This document shows positions 46,995 through 62,182 of a stretch of 64,000 nucleotides of DNA, piece after piece. The notes beneath the pieces were generated by a model. The model worked only from the letters and a program-made list of their open reading frames with translations, searched no databases and was not told where the DNA came from. Where the stretch lies: positions 32,001 to 96,000 of the forward strand of contig OY771587.1 of NCBI GenBank assembly GCA_963674825.1, written 5' to 3'. Source of the DNA: Candidatus Cloacimonadales bacterium. Its GTDB lineage: Bacteria; Cloacimonadota; Cloacimonadia; Cloacimonadales; JAIOQZ01. Positions within the stretch are counted from its first letter, which is position 1. The number at the start of each line of letters is the position of its first letter. The position numbers and the translations under genes were made by a program.

Positions 46995-47028
46995 AAAAAA
47001 GCCCCTCTCCTCTTACGAGGAAAGGGGC
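46995..47028 (-). terminator. Intrinsic terminator of the redox cluster
   Basis: Minus strand GCCCCTTTCCTC-gtaa-GAGGAGAGGGGC followed by T6. Confidence 0.8.
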
Positions 47029-47060: not shown

Positions 47061-49310
47061 CTATTTGATCAGCGCCATCTTTTGGATTGCGCTGCCGGTC
47101 TTTGTGGTCAGGCGAGCGAAGTAGATACCGCTCGAGACTTTCTTACCGTTATCGTCGTGACCATTCCAAACAACACTGGTTCCAGATTCGACCACGTCGT
47201 TATCGACGAGGGTACGAATCAGCTGACCCTTGATATTGTAAACAGCAAGGGTAATCGGCTGGTTGTCCGGGATGTTGAGCGAAATGGAGGTCTCAGGATT
47301 GAACGGGTTGGGATAAACCGCGATGGAAAGACCGTTCACTTCGGGAGCAATCGGATCTTCTTCGCTATCCATCCAGGGATTACCCATTCCACCGTAAGCA
47401 CCCATATCGGCTACAAGCGTGCCCATGGCAGGCCAGAGCGGTGAACCGGAGTTATCCGGATCTTCCATGTCTTGCTGATCGCCATTGGGATCGCCAGCAT
47501 CGATACAAGGTGACTCATCGGTCAGATACCATTCTGCTGCAAGGATATCATCAACGATACCAGCTTCGGCAGTTGGATTCGCGAAGAGCGGGTCCGCATC
47601 GATATTGCCGGTTCCGTCGTAGCCACCCGAAATACAGTTGTAGGTAGCGTAGAAATCGCCAAGCAGGTCGAGGAGCGGATCGTCTTCACCGATGATGATA
47701 TTGTTGGTGAGGGTCATATCCGAGTTGTACAGGAAGATGGTAGCGCCAGAGCTTCCTGCGCAGAGGTTGTTCGCGATGGTGTTATTGATAAGCACCGGAG
47801 CCGAATTCTCACGAGCACTGATCGCGCCAGACTGGTTAGCCTGGTTGTTCACGATGAAGTTGTTCGAAAGAACGGGCGAGGATGTTTCCATACCGATCGC
47901 ACCGGCAAGCGAACCGCCATTGTTGTTACCGAAGAAGCTCTTGCTGATAGAGACATCACCGGCGTTCAACATCTGGATCGCACCGCCCTGATCGGAAGCT
48001 GTGTTGCCGATGAAGCGGCAGTTCTGGATATCCACACCGGATTCTTCGATATAGATCGCGCTTTCGTCCGCGTTGTAGAACTCGCAGTTGTAAAGCATTG
48101 AAGTATTCTGGTTTGCGCCGATGAAATCGACACCGTTCCAAGTGTTGCGATCCGGTGTATTGAACATGATGGCGTCATCATCGGTAGCGTCAGCGATCAG
48201 CGTACCATTGACGATCATTCCGGTACCGGTCTGGCCGGTGATAACCGTACCCGGCTCGATAACGAGCTGAGATCCGGCTGGAACAACGATATCGCCAAGC
48301 AAGTGATACTCGCCGTACTGGGGATCCCAGTGACCGGCTACGTTACCGTAGATATTGCCAGTGTCCATCACATAGACGTAATCTTCCATGGTGATGGTGT
48401 CTGTTTGCTCACCGTCGGAAACGGTAAGGGATACAGTGTAAGAACCCGGTTCGGTATAAACCCATGCCGGATCTTCTTCTTCGCTATCGATTTCGCCGTC
48501 GCCGTCGAAATCCCATTCCCATGATACGAGGCCACCAGGAGGCATCGAAAGGCTGGTGAACTGAACGCCCAGCGCGGGAGGTCCGGACACAACGTCCGCC
48601 GTGAAATTCGCGCCAAACTGCATCAGTTCGCTCATCGCTGCCTGATGGATGGTGTGATCGCCGGAGATCGTCTGAATCAGAACGACGCCGCGGAGATCAT
48701 CAACACTGTCATATTCGAAATCGGCTCCAAGTGTCGCAGAGTAGGTTCCGGTCTCGCCTGTAACGGAGAGATCGAAATCCTGTGCTTCATAGCGACGCAC
48801 AACACAGAAGTAGTCGTCTGTATAATGCTGAGTGACGATGAACATGATCTTGTTGTTGTCCGTATCGATATCTCCAGTCATCAGAACATCAGCCTGAATC
48901 AGGAAGTTATCGGGATCGGACTGAACAAAAGCAACATTGATTTCCGCCGGAGCATCGTTACCGATTATCTGGTTGTATTTAACCAGATAACGCGGATAGG
49001 TCGTTCCGCCACCGACGTCTTCAAGGTAACCGCCGAACTGCGCATGCGGGATACCGCTTACGCCGTACATGCTTCCACGAGGGCTATAGTTAGGGCTCGT
49101 GGGGCAGGTTGCCTCATTGGTTCCACCATTCCAGATCAAAGGGATAACATTCTCGTTATCCGTGTTCAATTGAAGCAGCCCAGACCGAGCTGCGGGACAG
49201 TAGCCGCACCATGTCTGCGTAAACACTTCGCCGACCACCTGTATCTGGGTAGCCATTGCAAGTGACGCAGCAAGGAGCAGCAGCAAGAAGACGACTAATC
49301 TTCTAGACAT
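47061..49310 (-). CDS. Secreted protein: Omp28/thioredoxin-like domain (CGYC) + PKD + beta-helix + FlgD-Ig/T9SS-type CTD
   Basis: Signal peptide; EVFTQTWCGYCP; YGVSGIP; WEWDFDGDG (PKD); Asn-ladder repeats; YPNPFNPET...QKMALIK. Confidence 0.85.
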   Translation of the reverse strand: MSRRLVVFLLLLLAASLAMATQIQVVGEVFTQTWCGYCPAARSGLLQLNTDNENVIPLIWNGGTNEATCPTSPNYSPRGSMYGVSGIPHAQFGGYLEDVGGGTTYPRYLVKYNQIIGNDAPAEINVAFVQSDPDNFLIQADVLMTGDIDTDNNKIMFIVTQHYTDDYFCVVRRYEAQDFDLSVTGETGTYSATLGADFEYDSVDDLRGVVLIQTISGDHTIHQAAMSELMQFGANFTADVVSGPPALGVQFTSLSMPPGGLVSWEWDFDGDGEIDSEEEDPAWVYTEPGSYTVSLTVSDGEQTDTITMEDYVYVMDTGNIYGNVAGHWDPQYGEYHLLGDIVVPAGSQLVIEPGTVITGQTGTGMIVNGTLIADATDDDAIMFNTPDRNTWNGVDFIGANQNTSMLYNCEFYNADESAIYIEESGVDIQNCRFIGNTASDQGGAIQMLNAGDVSISKSFFGNNNGGSLAGAIGMETSSPVLSNNFIVNNQANQSGAISARENSAPVLINNTIANNLCAGSSGATIFLYNSDMTLTNNIIIGEDDPLLDLLGDFYATYNCISGGYDGTGNIDADPLFANPTAEAGIVDDILAAEWYLTDESPCIDAGDPNGDQQDMEDPDNSGSPLWPAMGTLVADMGAYGGMGNPWMDSEEDPIAPEVNGLSIAVYPNPFNPETSISLNIPDNQPITLAVYNIKGQLIRTLVDNDVVESGTSVVWNGHDDNGKKVSSGIYFARLTTKTGSAIQKMALIK

Positions 49311-49394
49311 CAAGTTCCTCCTTACGTTGCTGTTACGTTCTACGTAATAGTATATTTATTATGCAGAAATTTCAAAGATCGTTGCCGGAGGCCG

Positions 49395-51641
49395 TTACTT
49401 TATCAACGCCATCCTTGTGGTGACGGTGTGATTTCCGGCTGTCATTCGTGCGAAGTAGATACCACTTGAAACCGATTTACCTGCATTGTCGATGCCCTTC
49501 CATGTCAGATTCATCGACTGCGGTTTCTCGTTGTCGAGCAGCGTGTAAACCTTCTGACCACGAATGTTGTAGATCGCGACAGTCACTGGCTTCTGGCTCT
49601 CTTGAGCACTAAGCTGAAGCTGGATGGTCGTCTCAGGATTGAACGGGTTCGGGTAGACACTCATGCCGATCGAGCTGACGCTCGGCGGAATGGTCTCGTC
49701 TTCGTCGTTATCGACGTACGGAGCTCCGTCGCCGCCATACGCGCCCATATCGTTGGTCAGCGAGCCCATCGCCGGCCAAAGAGCATATCCTGTGTTGTCG
49801 GGGTCTTCCTGATCGTAGTAATCCTGCATGGGATTACCTGCATCGATACAGGGTGAACCTTCCTGAAGGAACCAGCGTGCCGCAACGCCGTCGTAATCGA
49901 CGCCACTGCCGGCAGACGGAGATGTGAACATCGGATCGGCATCGATATTCATCGTTCCTTCCCAACCACCTTCGATGTTCGAGAAATCAACCATCGGTGT
50001 ACTGTTGAGCGAATAGATGATCGAGCCTTCACCGCGCAAAATGCTGTTCATGATTTGCGGAGCTGCGTTGAACGTGAATATCGCACCACCGGATGTACCG
50101 GTATAGGTGTTATTCGCAATGGTATTGTTGTAGAAAATCGGTTCACTTCCACTCTTGAAGATCGCAGCACCGGCCGACATGCCTGTGTTGTTCACGAAAA
50201 TATTGTTCATGACTTCCGCTGAAGATGTCGTCATCTGAATCGCGCCGGAATTACTCGTACTGCTATTGTTCGCGAAAAGGCAACCGTTGATAGAGACATC
50301 AGGTGCGCTTGTCAGGTCAATCGCCGCAGGAACGCTTGCGCTGTGATTGTCATAGAACCAGCAGCCATCTACTTCCAGCGGGGCCGCATCGACGGTAATC
50401 ACCGTGTTCGTCGCACCGGAGAAACGGCAGTTGACAAACTGGTTATCCTGTTCCGTGTAGCGAATCTTCATACCCTTCCAGCTACCGTCTTCTATCGGAC
50501 GGAATACAATGGGATCACCATTACCGGCGTTCGCCACGATGCGTCCATTCACTTCGAATAGTGCGTTATTGGAAAGGATGATCTCCACACCAGGATTGAT
50601 CGTAAGCACCTCGCCTTCTTCGACTTTCACATCCCCGACGATCTCGTAGGGGCTGTATGTCGTGACCCAGGTACCTGCAACCGGTCCGGACGTGTTGCTG
50701 CCATCAGTGACCGTAATCAAGCCCTGAGCAACCGTTGTGGAGCTTTCATCATCTGTGTGGATGGTAAGACTTACGTCATAGACTCCAGGCGTGTCATAGA
50801 TCCAGAATGTGTTCTCATCCTGGCTGTCGATCGTACCATCGCCATTGAAATCCCATTCCCATGCGGTGATTTCACCAGCCGGGAAAGAATGGCTTTCGAA
50901 GCTTACAACCAGGTTCGCAGGTCCCTGCGTAATGCTGGCATCGATCACGGCAAGTGTTCCGGTGAACGGTGTCGAGACAGCCTGCAAGACTGGATGATTC
51001 CCTGAAAGACTCTGTACGACGACAACTGCTTTTACCCCCTGAAGATCCCAGGAAGAATCAAGTGTGACCGGATATTCGAAGTAGCCGGTTTGGCCCGACT
51101 GAGTAAGATCGAAGGTCTCGGCGTTATAATCCACTACGGTACAGAAGTATTCGTCGGTGAACGCATATGTGAGCATGTAGATGATACGATTGTTTGATGT
51201 GGTAACATTGCCGGTAAGCTCTACATTCGCCATGATAGCGAGCTCGCCGGAATTGTTGGTTCCCAGTTCGATATCGATATCGATCGGAGAGTTGTCATTG
51301 ATGATGCTGTTGTATTCAGTCAGATAGTAGGGATACATATCTGTACCGCCGCCGGAAACCTGTTCGGTTCCGCCGAAAACAGCAGTTGGAAGTCCGCTTA
51401 CACCATAAAGGTTGTACCGCGTACTATAACCGGGACTCGGATGTTCGCCATCACCCTCCCAGATGAGCGGAACGACGTTGTCGTTCTGTTCGAATAACTG
51501 AAGAAGCCCAGACCGGGCGTCAGGACAGTAGGGGCACCACGTTTCCGTGAAAACCTCCGCCAGTACCCCTATCTGCGTCGCCTGTAACAGCAACGCCGAC
51601 ATGAGCATCAGCAGGAGGAGCAGTAGTCGATTGGATATCAC
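49395..51641 (-). CDS. Secreted protein: Omp28/thioredoxin-like domain (CPYC) + PKD + beta-helix + FlgD-Ig/T9SS-type CTD
   Basis: AAGGAGG RBS before GTG 51641; EVFTETWCPYCP; YGVSGLPT; WEWDFNGDG; YPNPFNPETTI...RMALIK; paralog of the downstream gene. Confidence 0.85.
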   Translation of the reverse strand: MISNRLLLLLLMLMSALLLQATQIGVLAEVFTETWCPYCPDARSGLLQLFEQNDNVVPLIWEGDGEHPSPGYSTRYNLYGVSGLPTAVFGGTEQVSGGGTDMYPYYLTEYNSIINDNSPIDIDIELGTNNSGELAIMANVELTGNVTTSNNRIIYMLTYAFTDEYFCTVVDYNAETFDLTQSGQTGYFEYPVTLDSSWDLQGVKAVVVVQSLSGNHPVLQAVSTPFTGTLAVIDASITQGPANLVVSFESHSFPAGEITAWEWDFNGDGTIDSQDENTFWIYDTPGVYDVSLTIHTDDESSTTVAQGLITVTDGSNTSGPVAGTWVTTYSPYEIVGDVKVEEGEVLTINPGVEIILSNNALFEVNGRIVANAGNGDPIVFRPIEDGSWKGMKIRYTEQDNQFVNCRFSGATNTVITVDAAPLEVDGCWFYDNHSASVPAAIDLTSAPDVSINGCLFANNSSTSNSGAIQMTTSSAEVMNNIFVNNTGMSAGAAIFKSGSEPIFYNNTIANNTYTGTSGGAIFTFNAAPQIMNSILRGEGSIIYSLNSTPMVDFSNIEGGWEGTMNIDADPMFTSPSAGSGVDYDGVAARWFLQEGSPCIDAGNPMQDYYDQEDPDNTGYALWPAMGSLTNDMGAYGGDGAPYVDNDEDETIPPSVSSIGMSVYPNPFNPETTIQLQLSAQESQKPVTVAIYNIRGQKVYTLLDNEKPQSMNLTWKGIDNAGKSVSSGIYFARMTAGNHTVTTRMALIK

Positions 51642-51700
51642 TCCAGCCTCCTTTGTATTTGTTGACACGTAATTTTCGTACAGCACATATTTATGCTAAG

Positions 51701-53074
51701 CTATTTCAGCAGAAGCATCTTTTTAGCAGCGGTGTTCGTTTCCCCTTCGAGGCGATAGTAATATACGCCGCTGGTTACATCGTTGTTATTGTCGTCTTTG
51801 CCATCCCAGACCACGCTGCCCTGACCCTGATGTGTTTTCAGGCCGGTGATTCGTCTTACCTGCTGACCACGAACATTGTAGATTACAAGGTCGGTGTTCT
51901 GAGGATTGTCGTTTGTCAGCGCGAAGCGGATAGTTGTTTCCGGGTTGAACGGATTCGGTGAGTTCTGTCCAAGCACCACTCCTGCAAACGGGACTGTGTC
52001 TTCATTTGTGGGGCTGCCGGTTTCATAAGTGAAATGGATCGTATTTGTGGTTCCATGCTCAGGAACAATATTGAAATTGAAATCTGCAAGGCCATTGGAA
52101 TTAATGTTCGGGATGTTGAAATCCAATGCCATGGTTTCGCCCTGTGCCAGTGTGAATTCCCATTCTGTCGGGTGGCAGCCGCCTTCACCGGCTTCGTCAA
52201 CATGACAGAACATGACCATCCAGCTTTCCGGAGCTGAATTAACCTCGATCGAAGCCGTGAACGACATCTCGATGCCCAAGTTCTTCACAAAGAAATGTTC
52301 GCTTTCATACTGATACATCTCGCCAGCATAAGCCGGTCCGGTTACGTCAGTTTCAAATGGAACGCCGATGCGATAAGCATTGCTTGAAACAGCATAGTTC
52401 GAAGCAGTTTGAACGATCGTGTTGTCGTTATCCTGAACATACGCGATTATGTTCAAGTTTGTGGAAACCCAGCCGGCATCGATGGTGAATGTACCGGTGA
52501 ATGTCTGCTCGGAACCCTGTCCGGTAATTGCAATACCCTCATGAAGGATTTGACGAGCTACGTGGGTAGCGTTGGCCAGATCATCTTCAATAAGGATAAA
52601 ACGGATGTTTCCGGTAGTGATTTCAAATGTGTCAGAAAGCATCTCAACCGATACGCTGTACGCGCCGGTTGCTGCATCGAAACTGTCGATCATGATGTCG
52701 ATCGGAGATGCGTCAAATTTGCTTCCCTCAACGATCGCGGAATAATCCGTGCCATCAGCCACGGTATCGCCACCACCAACAACGGTTGACGCACCATTGA
52801 ATACCGCGGTGGGGAATTCGGTAAGGCCATACAGAGCGATCATCGCGTCCACATCCTCATTGCCCAATTCGCCATTGAAATATTGAACCGGTACCCAGAA
52901 GGATTTATCCCAGTTAGATTCAGTAGCAGCCATACCATCCTGAGCATCTTGCTGCTCCCCTGCGGTAAGGTCATTTCCAATCTCAGCCATCATGATCTTT
53001 GGCGTTGCCGTGAATGTGGCGAAAAGCCCGACCGCCATCAAGCTGATAATCATGATTAAATTCACACGCTTCAT
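51701..53074 (-). CDS. Secreted Omp28-like protein lacking CxxC, with FlgD-Ig/T9SS-type CTD
   Basis: GGAGG RBS; YGLTEFPTAVFNG, IRFILIEDD...HVAR, IIAYVQD; QNSPNPFNPETTI...KKMLLLK. Confidence 0.78.
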   Translation of the reverse strand: MKRVNLIMIISLMAVGLFATFTATPKIMMAEIGNDLTAGEQQDAQDGMAATESNWDKSFWVPVQYFNGELGNEDVDAMIALYGLTEFPTAVFNGASTVVGGGDTVADGTDYSAIVEGSKFDASPIDIMIDSFDAATGAYSVSVEMLSDTFEITTGNIRFILIEDDLANATHVARQILHEGIAITGQGSEQTFTGTFTIDAGWVSTNLNIIAYVQDNDNTIVQTASNYAVSSNAYRIGVPFETDVTGPAYAGEMYQYESEHFFVKNLGIEMSFTASIEVNSAPESWMVMFCHVDEAGEGGCHPTEWEFTLAQGETMALDFNIPNINSNGLADFNFNIVPEHGTTNTIHFTYETGSPTNEDTVPFAGVVLGQNSPNPFNPETTIRFALTNDNPQNTDLVIYNVRGQQVRRITGLKTHQGQGSVVWDGKDDNNNDVTSGVYYYRLEGETNTAAKKMLLLK

Positions 53075-53111
53075 TGTATCCTCCAATATCAATATATTAT
53101 TTTCAATTTAT

Positions 53112-53258
53112 CCCTCATCCCCCGCCTTCTCCCACTTCATGGGCGAAGGAGCTATAAGGATGCCCTTGGGGGCCGTCGCTACGGTCTCCATTGAACCCTC
53201 AACCCATCTCACATGTCGCGTTCCCTCTCTCGCTTGCGGGAGAGAAACAGGGTGAGGG
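53112..53258 (+). repeat. BoxC-like palindromic unit (solo copy)
   Basis: CCCTCATCCCCCGCCTTCTCCCAC identical to the 36950 unit; right arm CCCTCTCTCGCTTGCGGGAGAGAAACAGGGTGAGGG. Confidence 0.8.
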
Positions 53259-53262
53259 TTTC

Positions 53263-54759
53263 CTAAAACGTCGTCGTCAGTTCCAGCAAAACGCCTTCAA
53301 AGGCAGATTGCTGGCGGCAGATTCCATTACGGCAGACCTTGCCGCCTTTCTGCTTGCCTGCGAACAATGTCATATAGGTATCATCGGTGATGGGCGCGGA
53401 CACTTCTCCACCTACCCACCACGGTGCTTTGTCGATATCGCCCGTTTCTTCGTATTCGGTCTCGGCTGTCAGCGACATATTCCAGGAATTGATCGCCCAA
53501 TCGACCTGAAGAAGCGGTTCCACATGATCGGCTTCAACCTGACCATGCTTCTTGGTTACCATTTCGTATTCGGCACGCGCCATTACCGGCATTTCGAATA
53601 GATAGAAATCGAATGCCAGTGCGGGTGTGACTTCCTTTTCCCAAGTTTCGTTCACTTCGTTGCGATACTCGAGATGCTCGAAGTCCGCAGTAATGGTGAA
53701 CGATTCGAATTCGTGCTTCCCCTGCAGGAAGAGGTTCGCTTGCTGGTAGTCGTCATCCGAGCTCCAGGCTTCGGCGTAATTTACAAGCACTTCCGTCGCG
53801 TAATCCGGGATGAAACGGACTTCGCCCATAAATCCCTCTTCGTCCTCACCCGGCTTGAGTCCGCTTTCGGTAAGCGGCTCGTCGGCGTGGTTCATAGTGG
53901 GGATATCCTGTAGCGGCTCGATGGAATCGGTGCGGTAGTTGAAGTCTTCGTACTTCTTGTAAGCACCGGTGATGGTGAACATAGGAACGTAGATGGTCAT
54001 GTTGGTATAGAGGCCCTCGCCGTCACGGTTTTCGGTAAGCAGCTCGGTCTCTTTCATTTTAGCATATTCACCGTAGAAATCAATGATATCCATGTTGAAA
54101 TTTACATGACCGCCGATGGTGGTCAACTTCGAGAATTTATCGGTCTCGGAATTGGTCTCCGGATCGATCGTGGTGTAGCCCTGGCGTAATCCGAGCAAGG
54201 TCATGCCCATGCGCAGCGGCTTGGCGATCTTCACTTCGAGATCAGCACCGGAGACGATATCGTTCTTGTCGTCACCATTGCGTTCGATGGGGTAAGCGGC
54301 GTACATGCCCTGGACAGTAAAGATATCGCGGGTGTAGCGGACCTTGGCACCTTCGAGGCGTGTATCGTGATCAAGGTCGTCGTCTTCCCAACTGCGGAAG
54401 ATCATACCAGAGCCATAAGAGCCTTCCATCGTACCGGCATGCGCCATGAGGTTTTCGGTTTCATAGGTGATCCAGCGTTCGTCCCATTGGTAAGAGATAT
54501 CCTCTTCCTCGAGCTGATCGACCATCTCACCTTCATAGCTGCTGTACTTAGGATATCCGGCAATGAACGCCATGCCGAACGTCACATTCTTATAATTAAG
54601 GCGGAACGAAAAATCATCTTCGAAATAATGCTTCAAGGAATCGCCTTCCGCCTCGCGATAGCGGTATTCAATTTCATTCACGCCGGTGATGGAGAAGGTT
54701 TCCTCCGCGAAAATCAGAGCCGACGAGATGACAAGTAATATCAGAATCAAATATCTCAT
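53263..54759 (-). CDS. Outer-membrane beta-barrel protein with C-terminal CxxGxC motif (DUF6029-like)
   Basis: Signal peptide, amphipathic beta strands, terminal LLELTTTF beta-signal, YGSGMIFRS, GKQKGGKVCRNGICR. Confidence 0.75.
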   Translation of the reverse strand: MRYLILILLVISSALIFAEETFSITGVNEIEYRYREAEGDSLKHYFEDDFSFRLNYKNVTFGMAFIAGYPKYSSYEGEMVDQLEEEDISYQWDERWITYETENLMAHAGTMEGSYGSGMIFRSWEDDDLDHDTRLEGAKVRYTRDIFTVQGMYAAYPIERNGDDKNDIVSGADLEVKIAKPLRMGMTLLGLRQGYTTIDPETNSETDKFSKLTTIGGHVNFNMDIIDFYGEYAKMKETELLTENRDGEGLYTNMTIYVPMFTITGAYKKYEDFNYRTDSIEPLQDIPTMNHADEPLTESGLKPGEDEEGFMGEVRFIPDYATEVLVNYAEAWSSDDDYQQANLFLQGKHEFESFTITADFEHLEYRNEVNETWEKEVTPALAFDFYLFEMPVMARAEYEMVTKKHGQVEADHVEPLLQVDWAINSWNMSLTAETEYEETGDIDKAPWWVGGEVSAPITDDTYMTLFAGKQKGGKVCRNGICRQQSAFEGVLLELTTTF

Positions 54760-54768
54760 GCCTTCCGC

Positions 54769-55266
54769 CTATTCGCCTGTGACCGGCTCGGGATTTAGAG
54801 CTTTCACGATCTCTTCTTCCAGGTGCTTCTCGTCGCCCTTCTGGTAGCCTACATGCGAAAAGACGATCTCGCTGTCCTTGTTGATAATCAGCGTATGTGG
54901 CGGATTCTGCGCGTTGAGGGCTTTATAGACCTTCATTTCCGGATCGAGAAGGGTCAGGAATTCGAAGCGATTTTTCACATAGCGAACAGCGTCTTGCTTC
55001 TTGGAGGGCTTATCTACCGAGATACAGACAACCGTGATCTCGTCCTTATATTTCTTCTGGAGAACGTCCAGCTCAGGCATTTCCTTTTTACAGTTTTTGC
55101 ACCAGGTGGCCCAGAAGCTGATCACGACAGGTCCCTTTTCCAAAAGCTTGGAGAGAGTAACCTGATCCCCATTGATATCTTCAAGAGAAAAATCCTGTGC
55201 TTTATCTGCCGCGAAAAGTCCCGCAGACAGTGCCGCTATCATGATTGTGATTAAAATCGTACGCAT
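54769..55266 (-). CDS. Exported TlpA/ResA family thiol-disulfide reductase
   Basis: Signal peptide; DFSLED, PVVISFWATWCKNCKKEMP, PHTLII. Confidence 0.92.
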   Translation of the reverse strand: MRTILITIMIAALSAGLFAADKAQDFSLEDINGDQVTLSKLLEKGPVVISFWATWCKNCKKEMPELDVLQKKYKDEITVVCISVDKPSKKQDAVRYVKNRFEFLTLLDPEMKVYKALNAQNPPHTLIINKDSEIVFSHVGYQKGDEKHLEEEIVKALNPEPVTGE

Positions 55267-55280
55267 CGTAACTCTCCTTC

Positions 55281-56690
55281 CTATATACCTTCGATCGGAA
55301 CTTCGATCACGTTATAAACTTTGCAATCGTTCGCATATTCTGCATGCATGGTCTGAAGCCACATGACCAAAACCGCATCATCCGGCATGTCACCTTCGTA
55401 GTTGATCACGAGACTGTAGCCGGTACCGCCATCATACCCCATAAGCTCATCGATTGGGTTTTTTCCCTTCCAGAGCACCGCGTTGTGGTAATAACCACCA
55501 CTGTTAGACTGTGCGGTCTCTTCAATAATGGCGTAGCGGAGATAAAGATCGGTATCGTCAAAATATTCATCCAGTGAGTAATCGAGCCATACACTCAGTT
55601 CCTGCTCCGTAGCTCCCCACTTGGCTGTTGCTTTCGAGATCTCGGCCTGCGCATTGATTGAGGCGTAATCGAGAAGCGGTGTTTCATACTGAGATTGGTT
55701 GGAGATACCACCATTCTTGACGAGCTGTCCCTGAAATACCGCGGTCGGGCATTCGATGCTGCCGAGATAGTAATCCAGCAGATCGTCGTTGTCGTCATAG
55801 AAGCCATCATAGCTATCACTGATATGGTATTCAACGTAGTAGAAGATATCGCCATAAAGTTCTTTGAGGTCATGAAGCGCTTCTTCGGATGTCGGGCAGT
55901 TCGGGCACCAGGTACCGGTGAAGAGCTCGACCAGCACTTTCTGCTTGCTGGTGTCCGGTGCCTCGTTTCCATTGCCGCAGAATCTGTATTCACCACCGAC
56001 AACCGTATACGTGTCATCAACCCGCAGCGTATAGCCGGTGGAATTTTCTGTAAGCTCATATACAAACTTGCTTTCGTACTCGTCGTGATCGAGGACTTCG
56101 TAATCTACGCCAAGCGATGGTGACATATCGTCGAACAGGCCAAACAGCGAATCACGGTCAACACCATTATTGTAGTAGTCGTCTGTGAAGAAATATTCGA
56201 GTGAGGTGAAGTCGTTCGCGACAATCGCATCCAATAGATCTGTGAAATAGGCGGCCTGCCTGTCACTGAAAGATTCCACAGCACCATTGCCGACAAACTT
56301 GAATTCGCCGTTGATCTTACGAACGTAGTCGGTCATCGTTACGGTATTGTAGCCATCAATATTGATGGCATCCAGATACAGAACCCATTTCAAGATGGAA
56401 ACTTCACCCTCTTGGTATTTCTGGATTTGCACGGTGGACTGATACTGATAATCTCCGTAATTCTGTGCGAAAAGCGACAGCATATCCGAGTAGCTCTGGC
56501 CGTCGTTCATGTAGTCGTTATCATAGTATTGCATCAGAGCGGAAAGGTCATCGGCAGTACGGATCGAAGCAACCGCATCGGAAAGATCGTCGAAGAAATC
56601 GGTAAGGTTTTTGTCGAACTCATTGTCGAAACGATCACAGCCGGACAACGCCAGTAGCACCGCCACGACAAGCAAGAATAATCTCTTCAT
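55281..56690 (-). CDS. Lipoprotein with two NTF2-like repeats and C-terminal Omp28-like thioredoxin domain (CPNC)
   Basis: Lipobox LSGC after ATG 56690; repeats YDNDYMNDG / FTDDYYNNG ending GEFKFVGNG / GEYRFCGNG; KVLVELFTGTWCPNCP, VEYH, PTAVFQG. Confidence 0.82.
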   Translation of the reverse strand: MKRLFLLVVAVLLALSGCDRFDNEFDKNLTDFFDDLSDAVASIRTADDLSALMQYYDNDYMNDGQSYSDMLSLFAQNYGDYQYQSTVQIQKYQEGEVSILKWVLYLDAINIDGYNTVTMTDYVRKINGEFKFVGNGAVESFSDRQAAYFTDLLDAIVANDFTSLEYFFTDDYYNNGVDRDSLFGLFDDMSPSLGVDYEVLDHDEYESKFVYELTENSTGYTLRVDDTYTVVGGEYRFCGNGNEAPDTSKQKVLVELFTGTWCPNCPTSEEALHDLKELYGDIFYYVEYHISDSYDGFYDDNDDLLDYYLGSIECPTAVFQGQLVKNGGISNQSQYETPLLDYASINAQAEISKATAKWGATEQELSVWLDYSLDEYFDDTDLYLRYAIIEETAQSNSGGYYHNAVLWKGKNPIDELMGYDGGTGYSLVINYEGDMPDDAVLVMWLQTMHAEYANDCKVYNVIEVPIEGI

Positions 56691-56747
56691 ATCAGAACTC
56701 CAGTCATTATTTCCTAATGAAACCAATCGACAGCATCTTATCAAGGA

Positions 56748-58460
56748 TTATTTGCCGATTTCTTTTAATTCATCTTTGACCATCGGTTTTGTGATGATCT
56801 CCGGGAATACCACCGGTTCATCCTCGCCTGGCCTGTAGAGAAGATAAAGAGGAACACCTGCACGGTCAAACTTGTGCAGCCATTCAATGATAAGCGGATC
56901 CTTGCGTGTGTTGTCACCTCTTAGAAGTTCTACGCCATATTTCTCGAATTGCTCTTCCATATCTTCTGTGAAAAGGACGGTCTTCTCGTTGGCTTTACAG
57001 GTCATGCACCATTCAGCACCGAAATCCACAAATACCGGCTTACCGTCATCGATATATTCCTGAAGCAATTCCGGCGAGAATTTCTGCCAGCCTTCTTCCA
57101 CCTCGGCCCCGCCTTCAGTGCTTTCGAACCGTAGCAGGAACATTGCCGAGAAGACCACTACAGCAATTGCCGCGATGAGCGCAATCCACTGCTGTGACTT
57201 CTTGTGGTGAGGCTTCGCAAAGCTACCGTAGATCCAAGACGCCAGTGCCAAAGCCGCGATGAACCAGAGCACACGCATGAAGTTTCCGCCACCACCAACC
57301 AGCGCATAAACAGTGTTCAGCAGAAAGATGGTGGTTCCCATAAGAAGGAAGCCCATGAATTCTTTGAATACATTCATCCAATTGCCGGGCTTGGGGATTG
57401 CCTTGATCACGCCAGGCCAAAATGCCAGTAAGATGAACGGGAAGGCCAGGCCGAGCCCGATCAGCAGGAAAAAAACGATAATTAAGAGAGGTGGCTGGAT
57501 AAAAGCGAACCCGAGCGCTGCTCCAAGGAATGGAGCCGTGCAAGGTGTTGCCAGAAGAACCGCCACAATCCCGCTGAGGAACGATCCCCAGTGGCCGGTC
57601 TTGCCGGAAGCTTTCGAAGCCAGGCTCATCCCCGGTGCGGAGATGATGAAGACGTCGAACAGCGACAGGCCGAAAACGAAGATGAGCGAGGTCAGAACCA
57701 TCACGAACCCGAAGTTCTGGAACTGGAATCCCCAGCCCACCGACTCGCCCGAAAGCTTTATAATGATCACCACAGCGGCAAGCACGAGGAACGAGACCAG
57801 GATTCCCGCTGTGTAAGCCAGCGACCCTTTCATAATCTCTTTCTTGTGATGCTGGCTCTGGTTGACCAGGTGAATAGCCTTGATAGAAAGCACAGGCAGG
57901 ACGCATGGCATGATGTTCAAGATCAAACCACCGATGAATGCCATTAGCAGGAACTTGATAATATCGACTGCGGATGTTCCAGCTTTCGAGACAGTTTCCG
58001 GCTCTGCCGATTTCTCAGACACGACAGCGGTCAGCTTGAACGGTGCGGAAACTTCAAACTCCTCCGGAAACAGACACGAACCCTGCTCATTGCAGATCTG
58101 GAAACCGGCTGCCACGTTTAGTGTGTAATCTCCAGGAGCGACATCTTTTCCAAGCTGCATTGAACGCTTGACAACGACTGTTCCAGTATATTCGATGAGG
58201 CCGTCTTCGTCAGTGTGTCCATCAGGATATTCAGTTTTACCGAACGTAAAGCCGTCCATTTCCGTCGGCTCGATATAAAAATATTCTTCTTGAAATGTCT
58301 GATGCATCCCCTCAGGGAATATGTAGGTAACGTGAAGATACGCCTTGCCGTCGGAACCGATTTCCTGCGGCAAGATTTCCGCTTTGATAATTGTTTCCTG
58401 TGCAAAAAGAGCAGTAGAAAGGAGCAGGAACAGGAGAGTTATAATCCCCAACGACCTCAT
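56748..58460 (-). CDS. dsbD: Thiol:disulfide interchange protein DsbD
   Basis: N-terminal QICNEQGSCLFP; TM LNIMPCVLP and LATPCTAP; C-terminal DFGAEWCMTCK, GVPLY; GGAGG RBS before ATG 58460. Confidence 0.93.
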   Translation of the reverse strand: MRSLGIITLLFLLLSTALFAQETIIKAEILPQEIGSDGKAYLHVTYIFPEGMHQTFQEEYFYIEPTEMDGFTFGKTEYPDGHTDEDGLIEYTGTVVVKRSMQLGKDVAPGDYTLNVAAGFQICNEQGSCLFPEEFEVSAPFKLTAVVSEKSAEPETVSKAGTSAVDIIKFLLMAFIGGLILNIMPCVLPVLSIKAIHLVNQSQHHKKEIMKGSLAYTAGILVSFLVLAAVVIIIKLSGESVGWGFQFQNFGFVMVLTSLIFVFGLSLFDVFIISAPGMSLASKASGKTGHWGSFLSGIVAVLLATPCTAPFLGAALGFAFIQPPLLIIVFFLLIGLGLAFPFILLAFWPGVIKAIPKPGNWMNVFKEFMGFLLMGTTIFLLNTVYALVGGGGNFMRVLWFIAALALASWIYGSFAKPHHKKSQQWIALIAAIAVVVFSAMFLLRFESTEGGAEVEEGWQKFSPELLQEYIDDGKPVFVDFGAEWCMTCKANEKTVLFTEDMEEQFEKYGVELLRGDNTRKDPLIIEWLHKFDRAGVPLYLLYRPGEDEPVVFPEIITKPMVKDELKEIGK

Positions 58461-58772
58461 GAAAAACCTCCATGAATCCAATGTGTTTGGTTTTTTTCGA
58501 TCGGTCTCGATCTGGTTACAGTTGAAACGCAACATCGTCTATTTTGTTCACAGCGTCAATTATTTTTATTATCAAATGACGCCTCGAATTCAGTCGATAA
58601 TCCTAACCATTTCTTTAATAACGTGTTGCAATTCCAAACAATCTTCGCCATTTTCACGTAAACAGGCGTATAACTCCGTTTACGTCAAGAAAAAATATCT
58701 CTTGCATAAATCCCCGCGCTGATGTAATCGGGGATTCAATGATCTAGAAGGATTATGCAAAAAGGAGTCCAG

Positions 58773-60839
58773 ATGTCCAACTATTTTATGGAAACCCAGC
58801 ATCATGAATGGATTCTAACGAATCGACTCGGTGGCTATTGCCTTGGCACCGGGAATCTCGTCAACCAGCGCAAATACCACGGACTGCTCATCGCGGGATT
58901 ACGCAATATGGAGCGATGGCATCTGGTGGAAAGTATGGAAGAGAAGATTGAGTGGCGTGGCGAAGAGATATACCTCGATAGCAACAACTACAGCAACTGC
59001 ATCTATCCAGAGGGATTTCTTCACCTGGTCAAATCCTGGCTTCTGCCCTACCCAACCTTCCTCTATTCCACCGCGCACCACGACGACGCCATCCTGATCC
59101 TCAAAGAGATCATGATGGACAAAGAATCCAACACCGTGATGATCCGCTATACAAACCTCGGAGACCATCAGCTTCATTTCCAGCTGCGACCCAAGCTCTC
59201 CATGAGATTGCACCACGACCTGAATGCCCCTGGCACATGGGACAACGAACAGCTCAACACCATCATCGGGATTCAGGGCGAACGCTCCTTCACCACCTTC
59301 AGACCCAGCAACCGTCTGGAGCTGTGCGGCTGTTCATCCATGGGTGAGTTCCACTACGAAACGATTATCTACCGCAACGTATATTACCCATGGGAAGTGA
59401 TGCTCGGCTACAAAGGTACCGGCGACATGATCGCTCCGGTGCGGCTCGATTTCGACCTCAAAGTAGGCGAGCACAATTGCGTGCTGTTCAGTAACGAACC
59501 AGTCGAAGATACCGAAACCATGATCAAACGGATCACCAATTATCATGGAGATATGCCCAAGCCGTCAGACTACCCAGTACGTAAGCCGGACCACTCCATT
59601 CTTGAGAATCTCGACATGAAAGATTCGAAGCTGTTCAATGTACAAGACTACCGTAAGCTACTGCATCTGGCTTACGATGACTTCGTACTGGAAGCGGACA
59701 TCATCGCCGGATTCCCGTGGTTCGGAGCCTGGGGACGCGACACGATGATCTCGCTGGAAGGACTTTATCACACAGCCGATGGCATCGACACGGCCTGGGA
59801 AATTCTGAATCGCTACGGCAAGAAGATCCGGCGCGGCCTGCTTCCCAATGTACTGCCCGAATCGGGAGCAAAAGCGAATTACGACTCAATCGATGCGGCA
59901 CTTTGGTACGTTACGAGGTTGCATCAGGTAGCCAGCCGCAAAGCCGAAGCACTTACAACCAAGAAAGATAAGCGCGCGATATGGGAAACTGCTTTCAAAT
60001 ACGCCGACAAGGTTATTGAAGGTATTATGAAGCACAAGACCCACTATCACATCCGCGAAGATGGGCTGGTGGAGCTGCAGAAGAACTTCGCCAACGCAAC
60101 CTGGATGGATGCTCGTATCGACGGCAAAGAAGTCACGCCAAGGCACGGAGCGCCTATCGAGATCAACGCGCTATGGTTCAACGCTCTTAAGTTCTACGGG
60201 CTCATCCATGAAAGCCTGATGGAGCTGCTGCCCAAAAAGGAACGCTTCAAGCTCTTCATCAATTTGACCGAGATGATCGACAAGGTACACGCGGCGTTCG
60301 ATAAATTCTGGATGGGCGATTACCTCGCCGACCGATTGGAGGGTGATAAGCGCATCGAGGAAGTTCGTCCGAATGCAGTAATCGCGTGCGGTCTGCCCTT
60401 TGAGATCGTCGATTACGATAAGATGAAGATGGTCTTCGAACATGCAAAGAAGGAGCTCTACACCGAGTATGGACTCCGCACCCTTTCACCGAAGGACTAC
60501 CGCTTCAGAAAGAAATACATCGGCTCGCAGATCGAGCGCGACAAGGCATATCATCAGGGAACCGTGTGGGCCTGGCCGCTGGAAACCTACGCCAAATTGT
60601 TCGTCAGAATCTACGAGGAAGAACTTACCAAACAGGATTTGCAGGAGGGACTGGTGGATATTATCCACAAATTCCGCAACGGGTTCCTGCGAGGCCACAT
60701 CGCGTCGGTTGCTGAAGTATGGGACGGCGATAAACCGCACTTCCCCAAGGGTTGCCCTGCGCAAGCCTGGAGCGTGGCAGCAGTCTACAATATCGAAAAA
60801 ATGATCGAACACCTTAGCGATGAAGAGGATAACCAATGA
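58773..60839 (+). CDS. Glycogen debranching enzyme (amylo-alpha-1,6-glucosidase)
   Basis: EWILTN.LGGY, RKYHGLL, IIAGFPWFGAWGRDTMISL, TWMDA, YHQGTVWAW, QAWSVA; AAGGAG RBS. Confidence 0.93.
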   Translation: MSNYFMETQHHEWILTNRLGGYCLGTGNLVNQRKYHGLLIAGLRNMERWHLVESMEEKIEWRGEEIYLDSNNYSNCIYPEGFLHLVKSWLLPYPTFLYSTAHHDDAILILKEIMMDKESNTVMIRYTNLGDHQLHFQLRPKLSMRLHHDLNAPGTWDNEQLNTIIGIQGERSFTTFRPSNRLELCGCSSMGEFHYETIIYRNVYYPWEVMLGYKGTGDMIAPVRLDFDLKVGEHNCVLFSNEPVEDTETMIKRITNYHGDMPKPSDYPVRKPDHSILENLDMKDSKLFNVQDYRKLLHLAYDDFVLEADIIAGFPWFGAWGRDTMISLEGLYHTADGIDTAWEILNRYGKKIRRGLLPNVLPESGAKANYDSIDAALWYVTRLHQVASRKAEALTTKKDKRAIWETAFKYADKVIEGIMKHKTHYHIREDGLVELQKNFANATWMDARIDGKEVTPRHGAPIEINALWFNALKFYGLIHESLMELLPKKERFKLFINLTEMIDKVHAAFDKFWMGDYLADRLEGDKRIEEVRPNAVIACGLPFEIVDYDKMKMVFEHAKKELYTEYGLRTLSPKDYRFRKKYIGSQIERDKAYHQGTVWAWPLETYAKLFVRIYEEELTKQDLQEGLVDIIHKFRNGFLRGHIASVAEVWDGDKPHFPKGCPAQAWSVAAVYNIEKMIEHLSDEEDNQ

Positions 60840-62182
60840 GAATCCTAATGTACACATGGGAATTCCCGCCGCTTATCGCGGGAGGGCTTGGCATGGCCTG
60901 TTACGGCATGGTTAAAGCGCTCCTGAAGCAGAATGTAGAGATTGACCTGATCATTCCAACCCGGGAAGCAGTCTATTTCCCGATGCGCACGCCCGAGGAC
61001 GCCGATACCCTGCCGGTTGTGTTTCTCGACGAGAAGAAGCAGGAAGAATACTATACAACCACCTTTGAGGACGATAACCAACGTTTCAAGTACATCGGTA
61101 TCACCGAAGCGCCCGAGACCTATAAGCAGGTTGAAGAGATCAGCGAATCGATCCGGCTTGCTGTGGAAGAGCAAACCGATGAGGACGAAGAGAAAATTGA
61201 TCGCGAACCTGGCTACGAAGACATCTGGGACAACATCGCACACCATTTGATGGGAAGCGACGAGATCTTCAAACGGGTGCAGGAATACACCCTGCGCGCG
61301 GAACGCTACGCAAAAATCCTCCAATATGATGCCATCCATTCGCACGATTGGCTCTGCTATCCGGCAGGTATGATCGCACGAAAAATATCCGGCAAACCGC
61401 TGGTTTCACATATCCATGCCACCGAATTCGATCGCGCCGGAGGGCCGGGCAATCCGAACGTCCACAACATCGAATTCACCGGCATGACTTACGCCGATTA
61501 CGTGATCGCCGTCTCACAATACACCGCGGAAATGATCATCTCCCGCTACCGGATTGACACCGGTAAAATCCGTATCGTGCACAACGCCTACATCGTCGAT
61601 GACAACATCCAGAAATGCGAGAAGCGTCTCTTCCACGGCACGACGATTCTTTTCCTGGGGCGAATCACGCTGCAGAAAGGGCCGGAGTTCTTCCTCGACG
61701 TGGCCAAAAGCGTGTTGGAGAAGCATCCCGACGCGCGATTCATCATGGCTGGCAGCGGTGACATGGCACGCAAGATCATCCAGCGCTCAGCCGCGCTCAA
61801 GATGCGAAACCGCTTCCTCTTCACTGGATTCCTGAACCGCAAGGAAGTCGACGACATCCTGAAGATGTCCGATATCTATATGCTTCCATCCATCTCCGAG
61901 CCATTCGGTATCGCGCCTCTGGAAGCGATGGCCTACGGCGTCACGGCCGTGATCTCTAAGCAGTCGGGAGTATCGGAAGTTGTAGAGAACGCATACAAGA
62001 TCGATTTCTGGGATGTGCCGCGCATGGTGAAGGTGATCAACGACCTGATCGAGCACCCCGCAAAGCGCCGCAAGATCGGTATCGCGGGAATGCAGGAAGT
62101 CAATCAGATCCAATGGGACGACGCCGCGACAAAGATCAAGGCGGTCTATCAAGAAGCAATCGACGAATTTCAGCAGCAATAA
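60836..62182 (+). CDS. GT4 glycosyltransferase (glycogen synthase-like)
   Basis: WEFPP..AGGLG.AC, HSHDW, HATEFDR, GRITLQKGP, SEPFGIAPLEAM. Confidence 0.92.
   Translation: MRILMYTWEFPPLIAGGLGMACYGMVKALLKQNVEIDLIIPTREAVYFPMRTPEDADTLPVVFLDEKKQEEYYTTTFEDDNQRFKYIGITEAPETYKQVEEISESIRLAVEEQTDEDEEKIDREPGYEDIWDNIAHHLMGSDEIFKRVQEYTLRAERYAKILQYDAIHSHDWLCYPAGMIARKISGKPLVSHIHATEFDRAGGPGNPNVHNIEFTGMTYADYVIAVSQYTAEMIISRYRIDTGKIRIVHNAYIVDDNIQKCEKRLFHGTTILFLGRITLQKGPEFFLDVAKSVLEKHPDARFIMAGSGDMARKIIQRSAALKMRNRFLFTGFLNRKEVDDILKMSDIYMLPSISEPFGIAPLEAMAYGVTAVISKQSGVSEVVENAYKIDFWDVPRMVKVINDLIEHPAKRRKIGIAGMQEVNQIQWDDAATKIKAVYQEAIDEFQQQ

Follow-up and report, generated by a model that had tools for sequence, protein, structure and literature searches.

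An operon on the minus strand of a 64,000-nucleotide stretch of DNA from a Candidatus Cloacimonadales bacterium (contig OY771587.1, positions 32,001 to 96,000; hereafter, the window) encodes a DsbD-type thiol:disulfide reductase, an Omp28-related lipoprotein, a TlpA-like thioredoxin, an outer-membrane beta-barrel of the DUF6029 family, and three proteins (A, B, and C) that carry C-terminal domains (CTDs) of the type IX secretion system (T9SS). The interpretation of this gene set as a dedicated outer-membrane thiol-redox module is well supported, and the conservation of the operon and of its cysteine motifs exceeds chance by far. The favored reading, given a probability of about 0.42, is that these genes form one dedicated pathway that passes cytoplasmic reducing equivalents on to thiol oxidoreductase heads located at the outer membrane or outside it. 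Envelope reducing pathways are known only up to the periplasm, and the recharging of surface and secreted thiol and selenol enzymes in Gram-negative bacteria is an open question.

The arrangement of the genes is maintained across Cloacimonadota, which were scanned with one genome per species (80 loci, all from this phylum). The DsbD, lipoprotein, and TlpA genes lie directly upstream of the barrel gene in 49 of the 53 loci that have at least 4.5 kb of sequence on that side, and an Omp28/CTD gene begins no more than 1 kb downstream in 68 of the 70 loci with at least 1.5 kb on the other. The four exceptions to the upstream order are a labelling variant (L011), a split barrel gene (L024), an extra TlpA gene (L033), and a locus in which TlpA and barrel are fused (L064); both exceptions to the downstream order (L038 and L064) are of this fusion type. 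DUF6029 was found in 198 of 232 Cloacimonadota genomes (139 of the 151 high-quality ones). The split barrel gene (L024:7839-9251) consists of two open reading frames (ORFs; 46 and 234 bits), for which a frameshift, a sequencing error, or a pseudogene are possible explanations.

Outside the phylum, metagenome contigs scanned with an alignment of distant DUF6029 members (~20% identical to the barrel of the window) yielded another 80 loci. TlpA is directly upstream of the barrel on the same strand in 68 of 76 of these, and an Omp28-like gene occupies position +1 or -2 in 50 of 61. Sixteen of the 80 loci, picked from those with TlpA, were checked with Pfam; AhpC-TSA/Redoxin at -1 and Omp28 (PF11551) score above cut-off there, Omp28 heads with Por_Secre_tail are found as well, and a GldD gliding lipoprotein in one locus points to Bacteroidota. 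Because the distant loci keep the trio and DsbD is adjacent in just one of the 16 sampled, TlpA, barrel, and Omp28 probably represent the ancient core, to which DsbD appears to have been added in the same operon in Cloacimonadota. An earlier note on this DNA had proposed a trans-envelope relay on the understanding that these genes travel together, which they do within the phylum and, for TlpA, barrel, and Omp28, in the distant loci. In five of the 16 checked loci (L102, L106, L109, L114, and L120), the Omp28 lipoprotein gene is followed by genes for a small OMP_b-brl_2 barrel and a PF02441 flavoprotein (+2 and +3).

In some genomes, TlpA and the barrel form a single polypeptide. In four such fusions (P0034, P0048, P0053, and P0066; 641-648 amino acids), a signal peptide is followed by a TlpA domain that contains WCxPC, and a linker of ~15-25 amino acids connects this domain to the barrel; the genes at L038 and L064 encode the same layout with a short linker, and about seven genomes of one family contain DUF6029 frames of ~650 amino acids. 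Outer-membrane barrels begin in the periplasm, and the TlpA domain of the fusions is therefore placed at the periplasmic face of the barrel. An AlphaFold2 model of P0034 has a mean predicted local distance difference test (pLDDT) score of 91.2 and a predicted template modelling (pTM) score of 0.88, with only linker residues 174-177 below 50. Since a whole-chain pTM of this size (versus 0.76 for the barrel of the window alone) is hard to reach otherwise when the TlpA domain makes up a quarter of the chain, the model suggests that TlpA holds a fixed position relative to the barrel. The distance from TlpA stop to barrel start ranges from -95 to +16 nt in 70 of 75 loci.

The barrel of the window, encoded by the single DUF6029 (PF19494) gene in the genome (90 bits; cut-off 27), has only two cysteines, C476 and C481 (CRNGIC), located in a mini-hairpin (53308-53343) in the loop preceding the last strand, and its sequence ends in Phe. 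The two cysteines are invariant in 29 of 29 homologs, two of which are merely 17-21% identical to it. A profile search of 1.84 billion cluster representatives recovered 1790 DUF6029 members at E <= 0.001, and all 160 members examined (the retrieved proteins of at least 440 amino acids) contain C-x4-C within their last 45 residues; the second Cys is 17 residues from the C-terminus in 155 of these, and a terminal Phe is present in 144. The relay of the earlier note hinged on this pair being conserved, and the two surveys agree that it is.

The AlphaFold2 model of the barrel (pLDDT 85.5) has 24 long strands by our own count, with connections of 2-5 residues and both termini all on one side and the long loops (residues 69-88, 116-134, 272-306, 435-446, and 471-486) on the opposite side, where the best conserved non-glycine positions fall. 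The mini-hairpin inside the last loop is made up of two 5-residue strands that bear C476 and C481, and it is predicted by strand parity to be on the extracellular side or at the mouth of the lumen. All 498 residues of the model are used by strands and loops; the barrel would therefore have no plug of its own. No match to the barrel was found in a sequence search of the PDB at E up to 1, and Foldseek returned generic barrels only (TMq up to 0.52). Ushers, whose pore is closed by a plug domain within the same protein, occupy the top ranks in VIA-align. These 24-strand pores are FimD (PDB 3ohn_B; Z 18.9, root-mean-square deviation 4.5, 370 residues aligned) and PapC (PDB 2vqi; Z 17.4); the alignments take in 370-377 residues between model residues 22 and 498, so that the modelled barrel is usher-sized. 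Unlike them, the operon barrel lacks a plug and N- or C-terminal usher domains, has no chaperone or pilin genes beside it, and bears the C-x4-C hairpin before the last strand that is the hallmark of DUF6029. Lower ranks were taken by MtrB (Z 15.5), Wzi (2ynk_A; Z 13.2), and TonB-dependent/SusC-type barrels (Z 12-15).

Family assignments were made with Pfam and NCBIfam models at their curated cut-offs. The reductase matches DsbD_TM (PF02683; 67.5 bits, cut-off 27.1) and Thioredoxin_7 (53.4 bits, cut-off 27), and the three cysteine pairs claimed for it in the earlier note can all be read from the sequence (Cx5C in the N-domain, two membrane cysteines in MPCVLP and TPCTAP, and CMTC at the C-terminus), although the DsbD_N domain falls under its Pfam cut-off (20.2 versus 25 bits); NCBIfam PRK00293 likewise scores below its cut-off (168.5 versus 330 bits). 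Among 61 full-length DsbD homologs, Cx5C is present in 58, and the (S/T)PC motif and the C-terminal CxxC in all 61. The thioredoxin scores 75.7 bits for AhpC-TSA and 69.4 bits for Redoxin in Pfam, keeps its CxxC in 76 of 76 aligned rows, and has PDB entry 2m72 as the best match of its profile (E 5e-30), with ResA and TlpA structures also matched. It misses the cut-offs of the TlpA (56 versus 230) and ResA (79 versus 170) equivalog models and is therefore termed TlpA-like rather than an equivalog.

The lipoprotein has its lipobox (LSGC) 18 codons into the ORF, with CDRFDNEF next, and a WCPNC motif at 55896-55907. It matches no Pfam family, its N-terminal region resembling no known family in that search, and scores 39.3 bits for NCBIfam lipoprot_Omp28 and 27 bits for Omp28_seleno, both under cut-off. 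Its C-terminal domain is Omp28-related and thioredoxin-like, with residues 261-313 matching the active-site region of thioredoxin (E 0.012). Of 71 aligned rows, 70 have the CxxC, and the remaining one is a truncated ORF. A strongly conserved motif, C-D-R-F-[ED]-H-x-F, follows the lipidated Cys in the window (56615-56639) and in the lipoprotein genes of 61 related loci; the distant Bacteroidota-type Omp28 lipoproteins at +1 have C-D-K-[IV]-[ED]-x-P-[FY] in the same place. This motif may be a sorting or docking signal.

The three secreted proteins combine Omp28-type heads with T9SS tails. Protein A matches Pfam Omp28 barely above its cut-off (36.1 versus 34.9 bits) and FlgD_ig at 38.7 bits. Protein B remains below that cut-off (21.1 bits), and neither protein C nor the lipoprotein matches Pfam Omp28; B and C score 48.3 and 52.7 bits for Omp28_seleno (both under its cut-off of 200) and 37.2 and 42.2 bits for PKD_4, with an additional NosD hit (20.3 bits) in C. 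The NCBIfam Omp28 models NF033782 and NF045500 give 27-53 bits for the operon proteins, far under their cut-offs of 150-200. The families named in the earlier note were therefore recovered above cut-off for DUF6029 and DsbD_TM, and for Omp28 in protein A but not in B, C, or the lipoprotein; homology of the secreted heads to Omp28 is nevertheless supported by shared profile hits and by alignment to the selenocysteine forms described below. The only Pfam Omp28 match in the genome lies in the operon. The tails of A, B, and C score 31.9, 38.1, and 40.5 bits for TIGR04183 (cut-off 23) and 27.4, 40.1, and 33.2 bits for Por_Secre_tail (PF18962; cut-off 27). A search of the genome for the T9SS core, which covered PorU, SprA_N, and PorV, found PorU (593 bits, cut-off 420) and SprA_N (44 bits, cut-off 27), a PorV-like hit under cut-off (157 versus 250 bits), and at least 50 CTD-bearing frames, in keeping with the export route that the earlier note had assumed.

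Relatives of proteins B and C appear to carry selenocysteine (U) in place of the first active-site cysteine. Twenty-one of 34 B/C-like ORFs in related loci at first appeared to have no CxxC, and in all seven B/C-type genes inspected (from seven loci) an in-frame TGA falls exactly at the first Cys of this motif. Read through, these genes encode a signal peptide followed by VGEVFTxxW-U-PYC-P, and the resulting 741-amino-acid protein of L027 matches Omp28_seleno and Por_Secre_tail and is 43% identical to protein B of the window over 756 columns, with the TGA aligned with Cys51. A hairpin begins 14-17 nt past the UGA in all seven genes. Proteins B and C of the window encode Cys (TGC/TGT), not selenocysteine, at CxxC. 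Exchange of selenocysteine and cysteine at one position is a classical mark of a redox-active residue, and because the relatives display it at the first CxxC position, the secreted heads of the B/C type are taken to be catalytic redox sites. The products of the TGA-bearing genes would be selenoproteins exported by the Sec pathway and tailed for the T9SS.

A genome-wide pattern scan for such sites showed two further in-frame TGA motifs in CTD-bearing genes of these operons. A second apparent selenoprotein head, thioredoxin-like and with the motif FFWGGxG-U-xxC-xAAAP, precedes PKD/CTD ORFs at ~12 loci, taking the place of the Omp28 head on this stalk, and a third motif, LGxY-CVGU-GTTPPG, is found in CTD-labelled genes near the operon at four loci. 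The head of protein A shows a different change; the CxxC of its Omp28 head (gene 51701-53092) has been lost in the lineage of the window and in L003-L005, and its homologs at other loci keep CxxC in 28 of 38 long forms. The middle domain of protein A contains a C-H-x9-C-H stretch (FCHVDEAGEGGCH) that is seen only in the window lineage and L003-L005.

The host genome is a single contig of 3.89 Mb (99.57% complete; phylum Cloacimonadota), and in the window all seven co-directional genes claimed for 47061-58460 were recovered as head-to-tail minus-strand ORFs, which extend across 47061-58535 (Table 1). The cysteine motifs listed in the earlier note were also read from the sequence (WCKNC in TlpA, WCPNC in the lipoprotein, CRNGIC in the barrel, WCPYC in B, and WCGYC in C), although the Omp28 head of protein A has no CxxC. 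The single strong terminator proposed for the end of the operon corresponds to a hairpin with a T-run 33 nt past the stop of the protein C gene, which was the strongest (47028-47001) of the 11 terminator-like sites in the scan, against 10.7 in shuffles. Next to the operon, a glycogen-debranching-like protein and a glycosyltransferase are encoded by genes transcribed divergently from it (58755-62182, plus strand), which are kept only in the closest relatives (L003-L006).

Table 1. Genes and terminator of the operon in the window, and in-frame TGA sites at related loci (locus:position).
Feature	Position	Strand	Remarks
DsbD-type inner-membrane thiol:disulfide reductase	56748..58460	-	likely start at 58460 (MRSLG), in an ORF that stays open to 58535
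Omp28-related CxxC lipoprotein	55281..56690	-	ORF 55281-56744; likely start 56690; lipobox LSGC
Periplasmic TlpA/ResA-like thioredoxin	54769..55266	-	signal peptide; WCKNC at 55090-55101
DUF6029 outer-membrane beta-barrel	53263..54759	-	PF19494; only cysteines C476, C481
Protein A: Omp28 head without CxxC, middle domain, T9SS type A C-terminal domain	51701..53074	-	ORF open to 53092
Protein B: Omp28-related head, PKD domain, beta-helix, T9SS C-terminal domain	49395..51686	-	WCPYC at 51525-51536
Protein C, paralog of B: PKD domain, beta-helix, T9SS C-terminal domain	47061..49313	-	WCGYC at 49197-49208
Intrinsic-terminator-like hairpin	47001..47028	-	12-bp stem, 8 G-C pairs, loop of 4, T-run
TGA at first CxxC Cys, B/C-type Omp28-PKD-beta-helix-CTD genes	L008:1996, L015:17001, L019:12319, L024:10124, L025:15889, L027:12329, L042:10204		
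FFWGGxG-U-xxC sites	L007:6177, L010:12582, L011:8468, L012:11027, L017:9489, L018:11129, L020:9893		
FFWGGxG-U-xxC sites, continued	L022:6757, L023:2346, L025:18362, L026:2736, L026:11023, L029:13752		
CVGU sites	L010:2491, L011:200, L018:2629, L033:881, L033:3815, L033:16409		

The operon DsbD is the sole DsbD_TM gene, no gene of the Cytochrom_C_asm family was found in the nearly complete contig, and the DsbB, VKOR, and DSBA families had no match in the genome searched; on these grounds, neither the usual clients of a DsbD-TlpA pair nor an enzymatic source of structural disulfides was found. In the proposed pathway, electrons from cytoplasmic thioredoxin would enter at DsbD, which would pass them to TlpA, as is known for DsbD with TlpA, ResA, or CcmG elsewhere, and TlpA would dock on the barrel at its periplasmic opening. 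The barrel, being wide and plug-less, would give TlpA access to the Omp28 lipoprotein, whether straight through the lumen or via the cysteine hairpin. The lipoprotein or TlpA would then maintain the Omp28 heads exported by the T9SS (with CxxC here and UxxC in relatives) in the reduced state, allowing these to turn over on some extracellular oxidized substrate. A more specific form of this pathway, in which DUF6029 is the outer-membrane counterpart of DsbD, with TlpA plugging the barrel and the C-x4-C hairpin relaying electrons to surface Omp28-type Cys/Sec (selenocysteine) oxidoreductases, is tentative and on balance doubtful.

What was observed directly is the gene set, the cysteine motifs, their conservation, the synteny in two phyla, the fusions, and the selenocysteine/cysteine exchange; every transfer step is inferred. 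Several observations weigh against the pathway. In the model, the hairpin lies in loop L12, extracellular by strand parity and one membrane thickness from the TlpA tether, and C-x4-C is unlike thioredoxin-type or classical redox motifs. DsbD is adjacent in a single one of the 16 checked distant loci (L149), and DsbD_TM is kept in all five high-quality Cloacimonadota genomes without a DUF6029 hit; DsbD is therefore not bound to the barrel alone, and the joint loss of the two that had been expected was not observed. On the side of the secreted proteins, the Omp28 scores of B, C, and the lipoprotein are all under curated cut-offs, protein A of the window has no CxxC, a short form of A without the head occurs at 25 loci, and the hairpins resembling selenocysteine insertion sequence (SECIS) elements are individually not significant against shuffles (z -2.1 to +0.6). 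Moreover, a single reduction in the periplasm, ahead of release, could suffice for T9SS cargo.

The alternative that survives best, although it is itself unlikely, confines reduction to the stage before export. The CxxC or UxxC of the Omp28 proteins would be held reduced in the periplasm by DsbD and TlpA, and the barrel would be a dedicated platform for export, insertion, or anchoring of the Omp28 lipoprotein or cargo (either paired with a plug, as LptD is with LptE, or serving as a partner barrel in the manner of PorV/PorP), with the cysteine pair as a structural staple of a surface loop. The predicted location of the hairpin in an extracellular loop, the wide and plug-less barrel of the model, the resemblance of the motif after the lipidated Cys to a sorting or docking signal, and the constant flanking of the barrel by Omp28 genes, both as lipoproteins and as CTD cargo, are all consistent with such a platform. 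It leaves unexplained the fusion of TlpA with the barrel and its predicted docking there, as well as the invariance of a staple across all 160 members despite the lack of a DsbB, VKOR, or DSBA match in the genome, and selenocysteine heads imply catalysis with turnover, hence a need for continuing electron supply. The TlpA fusions, the invariant cysteine pair, and the selenocysteine heads thus fit a platform less well than the pathway to the surface.

It is improbable that the barrel instead imports an oxidized small substrate (a disulfide, a polysulfide, a selenium or metal species, or heme), which TlpA and the Omp28 lipoprotein would reduce or bind at the periplasmic face while the secreted heads capture it outside. 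The tethering of TlpA at the periplasmic mouth and the similarity of the barrel to large transport pores of the TonB-dependent/SusC type (Z 12-15) are compatible with import, as is the coupling of thioredoxin activity with hemin binding and heme acquisition in HBP35, described in PMC2907840. However, no TonB box, plug, transporter, or substrate-metabolism gene is conserved in the operon, a 24-strand pore left open would leak in the absence of a partner to plug it, and import offers no explanation for the invariant cysteine pair. It is very improbable that DsbD and TlpA serve generic housekeeping, in the maturation of cytochrome c or in periplasmic repair, and that unrelated surface-protein genes just happen to lie beside them. 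DsbD with TlpA, ResA, or CcmG is the textbook pair for cytochrome c maturation, and DsbD persists in five of five genomes without a DUF6029 hit, but it is to the barrel, not to DsbD, that TlpA is coupled or fused across phyla, and a role in cytochrome c maturation is disfavored by the absence of a Cytochrom_C_asm gene from a single-contig genome that is 99.57% complete. Finally, it is scarcely credible that DUF6029 is a Wzi-like polysaccharide export porin with incidental redox neighbors. A polysaccharide role is suggested in PMC9603273, which reports HHpred similarity between DUF6029 and Wzi-barrel-like hits near OPX genes, and the barrel model matches Wzi (2ynk_A, Z 13.2), but this reading is disfavored by synteny with TlpA (68 of 76 distant loci) and Omp28 (50 of 61) and in nearly all Cloacimonadota loci, given also the TlpA fusions, the absence of OPX, Wzx, or Wzy genes from the operon, and the ranking of Wzi under many unrelated barrels.

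The pathway to the surface resembles known systems in part. Like the pathways leading from DsbD/CcdA to TlpA, ResA, or CcmG, it begins with a DsbD with three cysteine pairs followed by a secreted TlpA-like CxxC thioredoxin, and the same direction of electron flow is expected; unlike in those pathways, its clients are not cytochrome c, ScoI/CoxB, or Msr but apparently Omp28-type lipoproteins and T9SS cargo, and its TlpA is coupled to an outer-membrane barrel, with which it forms a single protein in some lineages. MtrB has 26 strands, compared with the 24 modelled for the operon barrel. The MtrCAB complex (PDB 6r2q) would be alike in architecture, a large barrel joining a periplasmic redox protein with a surface redox lipoprotein, and the pTM of 0.88 of the fusion model lends such an arrangement indirect support. 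However, the match to MtrB is a generic barrel resemblance with no sequence relationship, and the operon system has no hemes; its carriers would be Cys/Sec pairs. The Omp28 neighbors in distant loci match Porphyromonas gingivalis Omp28 (PDB 2r2c; E 5e-10), named as lipoprotein PG2173 in PMC9722745; in contrast to Omp28 and HBP35, the heads of the window (except A) score under the Omp28 cut-offs and are mounted on PKD and beta-helix stalks. The Omp28-related selenoprotein model NF045500 is matched by A, B, C, and the lipoprotein (27-53 bits), and B/C relatives have TGA at CxxC, but the scores in the window are far under the cut-off of 200 and its copies use Cys. HBP35 of P. gingivalis, a CTD-bearing surface protein with thioredoxin activity in vitro according to PMC2907840, provides a precedent for such a protein.

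Literature searches, which did not cover subscription journals, found nothing relevant on Omp28 together with thioredoxin or selenoproteins, and no discussion linking Omp28/HBP35 to TlpA and DUF6029. As far as these searches reach, a reducing route to the cell surface has not yet been described in print. New here are a full cascade that shares one operon with the only DsbD of the genome, the count across the phylum, the fusions and the model of one of them, and the selenocysteine/cysteine evidence, the last of which points to exported selenoproteins travelling by the T9SS. Synteny and gene fusion link the DUF6029 family (1790 cluster representatives) with TlpA and Omp28-type heads, which makes it a testable candidate for the missing link, and the presence of the same three-gene core in tractable Bacteroidota makes a bench test feasible. 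If the pathway holds true, it would provide a function for DUF6029 and Omp28. Its more specific form, with electrons relayed by the hairpin, would be the first case of a bacterial outer membrane being crossed by a thiol-based electron conduit, common to Cloacimonadota, Bacteroidota, and their relatives.

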